27,295 bases of DNA, taken from a virus. The stretch lies in UHGV virus genome UHGV-0068847; one strand, given 5' to 3'. Below are positions 6,001 through 9,000 of the stretch, piece by piece (the stretch's first letter is position 1; each line of letters begins with the position of its first letter). Made by a program: the position numbers.

Positions 6001-9000
6001 TTCATGAACACGCCGGCATCCAGTTCGCCAAGAAAATCTGGCACTACGGTCATGCGGTCATTACTCATGGTTTTACCCTCGTTAAGGCGGCTGCAACCGC
6101 CGAACTTTCTCCATACACAACAGAGAAGGGCACCTGCATTGGTCGGCGGCTTGCAGAGACCGCTTTCTTTTTGCCCGGGTGGATTGGGTTATGAGCCCGT
6201 CGCCCGGTGATGCCCTTTTCTGTTGTGCCTTGAAAAAGGCTGGCGGTTACCGGACAAGTGGGAAAACACCGGGCCGCCAGAATAGTGGTACAAGGCATTT
6301 GTTATCCTCACCAAACGTACCAATGATTACGTTTGATGATTTAAATGTACCTTTAGTTACCTTTGCGGTCAAGCGAGTAATGTACTTTATGTTACCTTTG
6401 GGAATGTAAAAAAGCCGAGGCTATGCTCGGCTCTTAATTTTGAAGGGATTAAATGTTTTGAGTGATTTGTACAACTTTTCCGACAATGCGACAGTTACCA
6501 TCAATTTGGATTGGCTTAAATAACGGATTCAGTGGCATTAGGTATGAGTAGGGGCTATCCCAAACTAATTTTTTAACCGTTGCTTCTGATGTCCCATCCA
6601 ATATAGCAACGACTATTTTCCCATATAGATCATCAAGCTGCCCATAATGGGGCTCGACTATAACAATAGAACCTTCTGGTATAGATGGAAGTCCTTGCGG
6701 GTTAGTCATCGACTCACCGCGGACTACTAACCCAAACGCTTCATCCGATACATTTGCAGTTGTTTGAGTCCAGGAAATCACGTCTGTAAGTCTTGAGCAG
6801 GCATAGCTATCCGTCCATAAACCGGCTTGAACTGCCGATATGATCGGTACAGCTACAGGGGGTTTCAAAAAAGGCACGACGCGCGTGTCGTCAATGGCCT
6901 CATCACCGCTTCCATAGAGTATCCACTCTGGTGTTGTTGATAGAGCCTGAGCCAACTGGTGAAGGTTCTCACCATCAGGCTTTGTCGTGCCGTTTTCCCA
7001 TTTTGTAACCGATACACGGCTTACACCAAGCTTTTTAGCCAGTGCTAATTGGGTTATATCCAGCTGGATTCGTCTGGATCTGATGCGGTCTTTCATCTCT
7101 GTTTTCATGTAACCAATGTTACACCCTTTGCTTGTAACTGTTGTTTGCTATTTAATGTACCTTTTGTTACCTTTGGTTCATTCATCACACCGGAGGAACT
7201 ATGTATAAGTCCGAAGTCGTAAAGCATTTTGGCGGTATCTCTAAAACCGCTGTTGCTTTGAATATCTCACACCCTGCCGTATGTCGTTGGGGAAAGGTCA
7301 TCCCTGAGAAGCAAGCCTTCGTAATAGAGAGAATTACTAATGGGAAACTTAAGTATGACGCATCCCTATATCACAAGGTTACAGGCGTATCTGCTAACCA
7401 GTAACCACAGGAAAAAGGAGTAAGCCGTGGGTAACGAACCTATTTGGAAAGTCGAACGTCAGCCAGCCTGGCTGGTAGCGGCGATAAAAAAAACGATCAC
7501 CGATCTACCTGGTGGTTATGCCGAGGCGGCGGAATGGTTGGGCGTGACAGAGAACGCATTGTTTAACCGCCTTCGTGTTGACGGCGACCAGATCTTCCCA
7601 CTGGGCTGGGCAATGGTTTTACAACGTGCTGGTGGTTCAACTCATATCGCTGATGCCGTTGCGCGCCATTCTCAGGGCGTATTTGTACCACTGGCAGATG
7701 TTGATGATCTGGATAACGCCGATATAAATCAGCGCCTGATGGAGTCCATCGAATGGATAGGCCGTCATTCGAATTTTGTACGTAAAGCCACGGCTGATGG
7801 GGTAATTGACGCAGATGAGCGTGGTCAGATTGAGGAAAACAGCTATCAGGTTATCGCTAAGTTCCAGGAGCACGTAACGCTTCTGTATCGAGTTTTTTGT
7901 GTCGCTGAAAAGAGTGACGCCCGCGAGTGTGCAGCTCCGGGCGCCTTGGCGAACAACTCTTCGAGTATGGAGAAATAATCCGCATGAGCAGTTTAACGGC
8001 TTTTGACCGTCTACCGCAACTCAGGATGATCCCGGTTTCGGGTACTCCGTTGTTTCGGTATGAACGCAGATTATCAAACCGCTGGGTTCCGTGTAACCAC
8101 AGTAGGGCGGTTTCAATTGTGGGGGTCTACAACCGGAGGGCAAAACGCCTGTGCGCGAACTTAATCGAAGGTTCAAAGACAACCGCGGAGTGCCAGTCCG
8201 TGTTATCCGCTGGGAGCCAGAAACACAGCGCGTTATCTATCTGCGTGATGGCTACCCGCACGAATGCTTCAGCCCACTTGAGCATTTCAGGCAAAAGTTC
8301 AGGGAGATAACGGACGATCATGAGCACTAAATTAACCGGCTACGTATGGGATGGTTGCGCAGCGTCGGGCATGAAGTTGTCTAGTGTCGCGATCATGGCT
8401 CGCCTTGCTGATTTCAGCAGCGATGAAGGTGTGTGCTGGCCGTCCATTGAAACTATTGCTCGCCAGCTTGGCGCAGGGCCGAGCACTATCAGAACGGCAA
8501 TCGCAAAGCTTGAAAAAGATGGCTGGCTCACGCGCACACAGCGCCGTAATGGTAACCGTAATGCTTCGAACGTGTACCGCCTGAATGTGGCGAAACTTCA
8601 GGCTGCCGCATTTTCTCAACTGTCAGATTCTGACACGTCAAAATCTGACGCATCAAAATTTGACGCCTCAAAAACTGACCCGTCGAAATCTGGCAAAAAC
8701 GGCGGTTTTGACCCGTCAGAATCTGGCGGGGATCCGTCAGTAAAATCAACACAAGATCCACAAGTAACTTCAAAACCCTCTTGTCCGGTTGCGGCGCAAC
8801 CCGACCCTGAGATTGTGATTACTGATCAGGCCAGACAGGTTTTGTCTTACCTGAACCAGACAACTGGTTCACGCTATCAGGTATGCAGCACGTCGCTGGA
8901 GAACATTCGTGCCCGTCTGCGGGAACGGTTCACTGTTGATGATCTGTGCCTTGTGGTGGATTACAAAAACGCTGATTGGCGTGATAGCGAGCAGGCTCAA

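Follow-up and report, generated by a model that had tools for sequence, protein, structure and literature searches.

A conserved structured early-left operon leader RNA in lambdoid prophages without N

The region between the leftward early promoter (pL) and yfdP in the virus genome UHGV-0068847 is a conserved, non-coding structured leader RNA of the early-left operon. The window, by which we mean the whole stretch of 27,295 nucleotides (nt) that was analysed, is a lambdoid prophage of the SfV / ST64B / CPS-53 type without N. In the textbook account, early regulation in lambdoid phages is governed by N and nut, or by put in HK022. The original prediction had found no recognisable N gene here, and had placed either an open reading frame (ORF) of 77 codons or a structured leader in the N position. 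The absence of N is borne out, as the early-left and early-right ORFs scanned against Pfam and PHROGs included no N family, neither at this position nor elsewhere among them, and Q was the sole antiterminator. The structured leader is in turn supported by its fold energy and by compensatory changes among relatives. It belongs to a very widespread leader-RNA family, new to Rfam, which is shared by N-less lambdoid prophages, and it bears directly on the control of early transcription in these phages.

Fold, covariation and the overlapping reading frame

The 283-nt leader folds at -111.9 kcal/mol, compared with -83.2 +/- 4.9 kcal/mol for shuffled sequences (z = -5.85), and none of the 200 shuffles folded as well. 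Relatives were collected in two ways: viral contigs were scanned for an 18-nt core (loci L005-L124), and yfdP homologues were taken from one genome per species, which gave 65 loci (L130-L194) unselected on the RNA sequence. In a MAFFT alignment of 26 distinct sequences, 95% of the cells in helix P1 and in the lower stem of hairpin P2 were paired, versus 41-55% when the 3' partner was slid. Eight pairs had changed on both sides, six of the 19 in P1 and two in the P2 lower stem, a number that none of 500 shuffles reached. Examples of such compensatory change are C-G against G-C (14:12) and A-U against G-C (18:6 and 20:5), and P1 also contains one conserved mismatch. G-U pairs are frequent, which identifies the RNA as the leftward strand. 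Folding and covariation analysis in related prophages, proposed earlier as a check, thus supports the stems on the leftward RNA (Table 1).

The same stretch holds the 77-codon ORF, and the strong Shine-Dalgarno sequence (SD) and ATGA coupling ascribed to it are present in the sequence. Its product is nevertheless not a conserved protein. It has no match to a Pfam or PHROG family, and indels between relatives are not multiples of three across the ORF. Between the core and the P1 3' arm, relatives have 41 to 66 nt, in all three residue classes modulo 3, and even L028, the closest relative, reads the C-terminal half in a different frame. A C-to-U change (GGGCGAC becoming GGGUGAC) leaves a G-U pair standing in P2 while creating an in-frame UGA, and it is carried by 12 of 41 distinct variants. 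At the homologous site the RefSeq annotation (PGAP) is blank in Nissle 1917, and in APEC O1 it gives a 'frameshifted' pseudogene. The substitutions follow the RNA pairing, and when the ORF is set against the stems, as had been suggested, relatives keep the stems and break the frame, which indicates that it is the RNA and not a protein that is conserved. The ORF may be translated as a leader ORF.

Table 1. Coordinates of the leader, its promoter and operators, and the genes around it (positions in the window)
Feature	Position	Strand	Sequence, basis or remark
T1 terminator-type hairpin	6280-6274, 6246-6240; U5 6237-6233	-	CUGGCGG...CCGCCAG, CC, U5; sequence and fold
P0	6296-6291 with 6232-6227	-	GCCUUG/CAAGGC; encloses T1 and U5
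P1 domain	6116..6227; arms 6227-6209, 6134-6116	-	19-bp helix, three-way junction with P2 and P3; fold and covariation
P2 hairpin	6175..6207; tip 6198-6186	-	lower stem CCGGG/CCCGG, internal loop, tip GGG-CUCAUAA-CCC
P3 hairpin	6146..6163	-	GCGG-UCUCUGCAAG-CCGC; most variable part in length and sequence
Single-stranded motif	6105..6116	-	GUAUGGAGAAAG; GUGGAGAAACUAAC in other subtypes; alignment
P4 hairpin	6086..6101	-	GGCGG-UUGCAG-CCGCC; followed by SD GAGGG 6080-6076 and yfdP ATG 6068
77-codon ORF	6065..6298	-	ATG start, GAGGA 7 nt upstream, stop/start ATGA overlap with yfdP
pL-type promoter	6344..6372	-	-35 TTGACC, 17-nt spacer, -10 TACATT; consensus scan
25-bp operator repeat copies	6311-6335, 6341-6365 (over -10), 6376-6400 (over -35), 7151-7175 (OR)		repeat search
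Integrase	1-1149	-	
Excisionase	1133-1396	-	
yfdR	4145-4711	-	early-left gene
yfdQ/DUF2303	4813-5640	-	early-left gene
yfdP	5697-6068	-	first early-left gene, ATG at 6068
S24/HTH CI-type repressor	6449-7108	-	own terminator after the gene
P22-Cro-like gene	7201-7404	+	
CII/CP76 (YmfL)-like gene	7427-7978	+	
Q antiterminator	14022-14732	+	

The first conserved hairpin of the leader, T1 (6280-6240), had been missed by the original prediction. It is built like an intrinsic terminator, with a GC-rich hairpin directly before a U-run on the transcribed strand, and 152 of 167 distinct leaders have such a GC-rich hairpin with five or more U behind it, their stem sequences differing. P0 covaries, reading CCUUG/CAAGG in the window and CCCUG/CAGGG in L002 and L096. 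In 27 of 80 distinct T1 types, the window included, an SD-preceded ORF starting with AUG or GUG runs through the T1 3' arm and the U-run. Long forms of T1 (for example in L133, L150, L169 and L175) have a conserved apical part, CUUCAACC..AACACCAGGAGG..GAAGAUAAUGUUCUG, about 20-75 nt before the U-run. It holds an SD and an AUG (GUG in L166, L187 and L188) located about 20-24 nt before the U-run, and the length of the resulting mini-ORF goes from Met-Phe-stop up to about 60 codons.

P1 begins 0-2 nt behind the U-run. Its usual length is 18-25 bp (66 leaders), which is kept whatever apical domain it carries. P2 and the segment after P1 hold unpaired nucleotides that are invariant in the alignment, and the P2 tip, GGGCUCAUAACCC, is identical at 13 of 13 positions to the anticodon stem-loop of the E. 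coli metZ initiator tRNA (three G-C pairs, CUCAUAA). Among the 65 yfdP-anchored loci the tip is exact in 14, reads CUCAUU[AC] in 8 and has one change in 6, and the remaining 37 have a different inner domain. These other inner domains include some of unrelated type in Serratia, Yersinia and Proteus, as well as the plain hairpin seen in Yersinia similis and Sodalis.

The GC hairpins described earlier are present, as GGCGGTTGCAGCCGCC at 6101-6086 (P4) and as GCGG-N10-CCGC at 6163-6146 (P3). For the latter the hairpin stands, and the T-run said to follow it lies only on the + strand, antisense to the pL transcript. It also falls in the most variable part of the element: relatives keep GCGG...CCGC, and the loop and the length (13 to about 41 nt) vary. 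Read on the + strand (6146-6175), P3 gives GCGGCTTGCAGAGACCGC and then TTTCTTTTTG, a weak rightward (antisense) terminator-like site that occurs in this P3 subtype only. The single-stranded motif after P1, which has a GGAG SD core, is present in 57 of the 65 yfdP-anchored leaders. At the P4 position, 72 of the 73 distinct segments have a hairpin, whose 5' stem comes in 32 different versions and whose loop contains GCA in 50. Between the end of P1 and the ATG there are usually 46-54 nt.

Proposed function of the leader and its alternatives

We tentatively favour the possibility that the leader is a pL-proximal attenuator combined with a platform in the 5' untranslated region (UTR), and that it is related to the immunity reported for SfV, which is RNA-based and involves termination. 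T1 would then attenuate, so that some or most pL transcripts end about 105 nt from the start. Occupation of the RNA over T1 would favour read-through, here by a ribosome on the 77-codon leader ORF, the AUG of which is 16 nt before the T1 stem, and RNA from the same leader would disfavour read-through in trans, following the logic of P4 immunity and of SfV. In P4, translation across the leader prevents RNA-mediated termination. The transcripts that read through would carry P1-P4, with about 50 nt of fixed 5' UTR before the first gene, and P1-P4 probably sets the processing of the first gene's message, having a helix of RNase III length, as well as its translation initiation.

The attenuator proposal draws on the wide occurrence of the T1-type hairpin, on the fixed spacing around P1, on the variety of first genes that the module precedes, on its place after repressor and pL, and on the leader ORFs that cross T1. 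Several points weigh against it. T1 was not called by a simple terminator scan, because its loop is longer than 8 nt. Most of the short T1 types, SfV included, have no SD-preceded ORF across T1, and in the long types about 80% of the ORFs read through, which is not clearly over chance, some of them being Met-Phe-stop only. As P1-P4 lies downstream of T1, it could exert no control in cis on T1 during transcription. No conserved loop was found to have clear complementarity to a conserved target. Translation through T1 as a general rule was rejected, since it applies to 27 of 80 T1 types only and read-through by mini-ORFs does not clearly exceed chance. UUAUGAG, the complement of the CUCAUAA loop, has no other copy in the window, and its positions are unconserved in related loci; a target of the loop at the start of the CII-like gene was ruled out by the actual sequence.

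It is unlikely, on balance, that the leader serves purely as a platform for mRNA processing and translation, with P1 as an RNase III-type helix like the RNase III hairpin of lambda's N leader, with P4 and GGAG as a 5' stabiliser or a ribosome standby site of the first cistron, and with T1 as an unregulated, leaky insulator against read-through of the repressor transcript. Such a platform would agree with P1 being held at 18-25 bp irrespective of its apical domain and with one conserved mismatch, with the constant spacing of about 50 nt to the start codon, and with the GGAG core in the motif after P1. Hairpins of the P4 class with a strong ribosome-binding site (RBS) also stand before yfdR, xis and ant. 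However, it would leave unexplained why the tip and the internal loop of P2 are so strongly conserved within the main subfamily, and why T1 abuts P1 so tightly.

The possibility that P1-P3 is a functional analogue of put with an unrelated sequence, which would bind its own polymerase, make it resistant to terminators and Rho and so replace N, seems rather improbable. It is the first structured RNA after pL in N-less phages, and a specific contact between RNA and protein would fit the invariant nucleotides left unpaired in P2 and after P1. Phage LLS also carries the leader element. A genome paper of 2025 (PMC12315714) states that LLS is without an N homologue and describes the mechanism of its early antitermination as open, and Casjens and colleagues suggest a put-like one. 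Rfam contains no put family, and therefore a put covariance model was built from HK022 putL and putR and the annotated HK639 putL. The consensus tested has two stem-loops in about 70 nt (CGAACGGC...GUCGG...GGCG.GG..AGGA.GA..CAAU). The model finds each of the three sequences it was trained on with E of 1e-21 or better, but at E <= 10 it matches neither the window nor any of nine related loci. The P2 core has no second copy in the 27-kb window, and in the pR operon the gap of 173 nt that follows the CII-like gene shows no unusual structure (z = 0.06). The suggested membership of the HK022 put family is therefore not borne out. Comparison with nut gave a similar result, as no boxA (CGCUCUUA-like) was found near pL or pR, the single match to YGCTCTTWA in the window being at 23028(-). 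An analogue of unrelated sequence is further disfavoured by the position of T1, the sole conserved terminator, upstream of the folded domain, and by the early-left operon (3600-6400), in which the terminator scan gave only one weak terminator-like site. Moreover, relatives in Serratia, Yersinia, Proteus and Sodalis have another apical domain or none, which is ill-suited to a precise fold that binds RNA polymerase.

Distinctly improbable, in our estimate, is that the leader represents a new, self-contained class of RNA regulator of early transcription, one that replaces N/nut across a great many lambdoid prophages of enterobacteria, is unrelated to put and, in the main subfamily, is recognised through its look-alike of the initiator-tRNA anticodon arm. 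Possible partners of the look-alike would be the 30S P site, IF3, MetRS or, with the RNA as decoy or sensor, a VapC-type nuclease of the initiator-tRNA anticodon. Finally, that the Arg/Pro/Ala-rich product of the 77-codon ORF is a small RNA-binding antiterminator in place of N is hardly credible in spite of its basic composition, strong SD and ATGA overlap, and as a conserved protein it is already refuted by the missing family match, the unconserved amino-acid sequence, the frame-breaking indels and the in-frame stops described above.

Defining the function would distinguish between an attenuator, an immunity RNA, an antiterminator and a processing platform, and it would explain how the early-left genes, xis and int among them, are switched on. 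For annotation the gain is an RNA family, and the repeated mislabelling of this region as hypothetical or frameshifted genes would cease.

Genomic setting, distribution and recurrent motifs

The predicted leftward promoter TTGACC/TACATT was recovered at 6372..6344(-), and operator repeats flank and overlap it. The 25-bp repeat family shows identities of 68/100/76/92% and spacings of 30 and 35 bp. The inverted repeat AAACGTA-N8-TACGTTT, for which an operator of a second regulator or an RNA hairpin had been suggested, is present and sits inside the 6311-6335 copy. Its extended arms (6308-6319 and 6328-6339) are 92% complementary. It is most simply explained as a third, diverged copy of the OL1/OL2/OR repeat of CI and as an OL3-type CI/Cro operator; the repeat would also fold as an RNA hairpin (6339-6308, positions +5 to +35). 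The 6311-6335 segment is identical in L028, the only other locus with the same immunity region.

The 55-nt core of the element was found in 2521 of 5426 complete E. coli genomes, so the family reaches roughly half of them, and it extends to Stx2-converting phages, to the serotype-converting phages SfV, SfII and SfIV and to the prophages of Nissle 1917. Further carriers are mEp460, cdtI, ST64B, phiNP, LLS and both Stx2a and Stx2c phages, and the family spans prophages of the Enterobacterales. In a plasmid collection the core occurred only in phage-like replicons and integrated prophages. The module stands downstream of repressor and pL in SfV, mEp460, the Stx2 phages, APEC O1 and Nissle, and it precedes different first genes, including yfdP, two types of rdgC, yfdR, a gene resembling xis and others. 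E. coli K-12 was rejected as a model for the element, as the leader of its CPS-53 is deleted. The deletion junction is upstream of yfdP (L128 3250-3605) and joins iteron-like repeats, from a fragment of a replication gene, to the final 23 nt of the leader (AUAUGAUGAGGAGCAGCAAAAUG); K-12 is therefore without the element.

Many relatives have about 250-300 nt more of conserved RNA modules upstream of T1, which are absent from the window (L130 2480-2760, L004 from SfV 2760-2960, L179 1186-1264, L181 2722-2800 and L160 2669-2796). These modules include a second P1-type domain with the end GUUGUGGUGAAUGCG, hairpins with T-loop-like loops (GGCAGGUUCAAUCCCUGCC and GUCCGUUCAACUCGGAC) and a segment resembling T-arm and acceptor (CACCGGGAGGCACCCGGCACCACAAC). 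In Phytobacter they contain a complete tRNA-Ile(AAU)-like gene according to ARAGORN, and in Yersinia a 40-bit match to the tRNA model. In the early-right region of the SfV locus (L004 74-150(-)) there is a match of 64 bits, above the gathering score, to the Rfam family isrK, an Hfq-binding small RNA.

Some short motifs of the leader recur. There are three exact copies of GTATGGAGAAA in the window, versus 0.01 expected, at 1373-1383(-), 6106-6116(-) and 7965-7975(+). All three lie on the sense strand of their own operon, the third, in the pR operon, being where the CII/YmfL-like gene ends. In SfV, APEC O1, Stx2a_1447 and mEp460 the leader has the variant GUGGAGAAACUAA, and there too a second copy of it stands at the end of the ymfL-like gene, so that the two sites co-vary between phages. 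A cassette of a hairpin and an RBS occurs at 12311-12326(+), 4716-4701(-) and 1403-1384(-), directly before the Ant/Rha-like gene, yfdR and xis, and P4 (6101-6086(-)) is of the same class. The cassette consists of a GC stem of 5-7 bp, the loop GUGCAG, (U)AUGGAGAAA(A) and AUG; the loop is constant and the stems differ. Its three potential starts share one frame (GUG CAG nnn nnn nnU AUG GAG AAA Ann AUG), and the same cassette is found in APEC O1, mEp460 and Nissle. The recurrence of GUAUGGAGAAA was considered as a second leader in the pR operon and rejected, being part of this general cassette.

Downstream of the third copy of GTATGGAGAAA, an ORF (MSSLTAFDRL...) runs from the ATG at 7985 to 8310(+) after GUAUGGAGAAAUAAUCCGC and overlaps, in another frame, a DUF4222 ORF at 8151-8330(+). 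SfV has a similar start (AUGAACAGUUUAACGG) in the same place.

Comparison with known regulatory RNAs

No family of Rfam 15 overlaps the element, either in the window and 16 related loci at the gathering score or in the region 5900-6500 and four loci at E <= 10, and a search of the full-text literature for the core sequence found no paper. Among known systems, put works in cis, by way of the beta' zinc-binding domain of RNA polymerase, and rpoC mutations block it. The leader is like put of HK022 and HK639 in being a structured RNA just after pL in a phage without an N protein. However, put is about 70 nt with two stem-loops, whereas the domain of the leader is about 112 nt with a three-way junction, and put has copies in both early operons, before terminators, whereas the leader is a single copy after a conserved terminator. 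There is no match in sequence or structure between them, and in contrast to put the apical domain of the leader is not conserved across the family.

The pL leader of lambda carries nutL and, upstream of N, an RNase III hairpin. Lambda and the window both have a long hairpin that follows pL and precedes the first early-left gene, near the RBS of that gene, but the window is without the N gene, without boxA near pL or pR and without a boxB of the GNRA type.

The identity of the P2 tip with the initiator tRNA stops at its base: below the three G-C pairs the stem does not resemble a tRNA. ARAGORN gave no tRNA genes in the window, and the Rfam tRNA model matched nothing over the element in the window, L030, L152, L006 and L033 at E <= 10. 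The likeness is relaxed in relatives, where loop positions 37 and 38 vary, and many relatives are without the hairpin. An mRNA that mimics the anticodon arm of a tRNA is known from the thrS operator.

With the CI RNA of P4, the c4 RNA of P1 and P7 and the CA RNA of N15 the proposed function of the leader would share a similar logic, namely an RNA derived from the leader, premature termination, and translation that prevents it. The 5' arm of P1 is complementary to two segments, the one upstream of T1 (UGCUGUGUGUAGUC in most relatives) and the 3' arm of P1, a pattern that P0 and P1 explain equally well. Unlike those RNAs, the leader has no match to the Rfam family C4 (RF01695), neither at the gathering score nor at E <= 10 over 5900-6500, and its host phage is lambdoid.

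SfV is among the closest known systems, and for it one passage in PMC3475682, citing Roberts, Allison and Verma 2007, speaks of a 'transcription-termination-mediated immunity' brought about by a non-coding RNA. The window differs from SfV in that its pL is directly before T1, and in being without the roughly 450 nt of upstream modules and orf33 that SfV has. The SfV leader between cI/orf33 and orf32 (yfdP) is nevertheless homologous to that of the window (L004 2960-3137), with compensatory changes between them, and it shares the T1-type hairpin with U5, P1, the P2 tip, a short P3, GUGGAGAAACUAA and P4.

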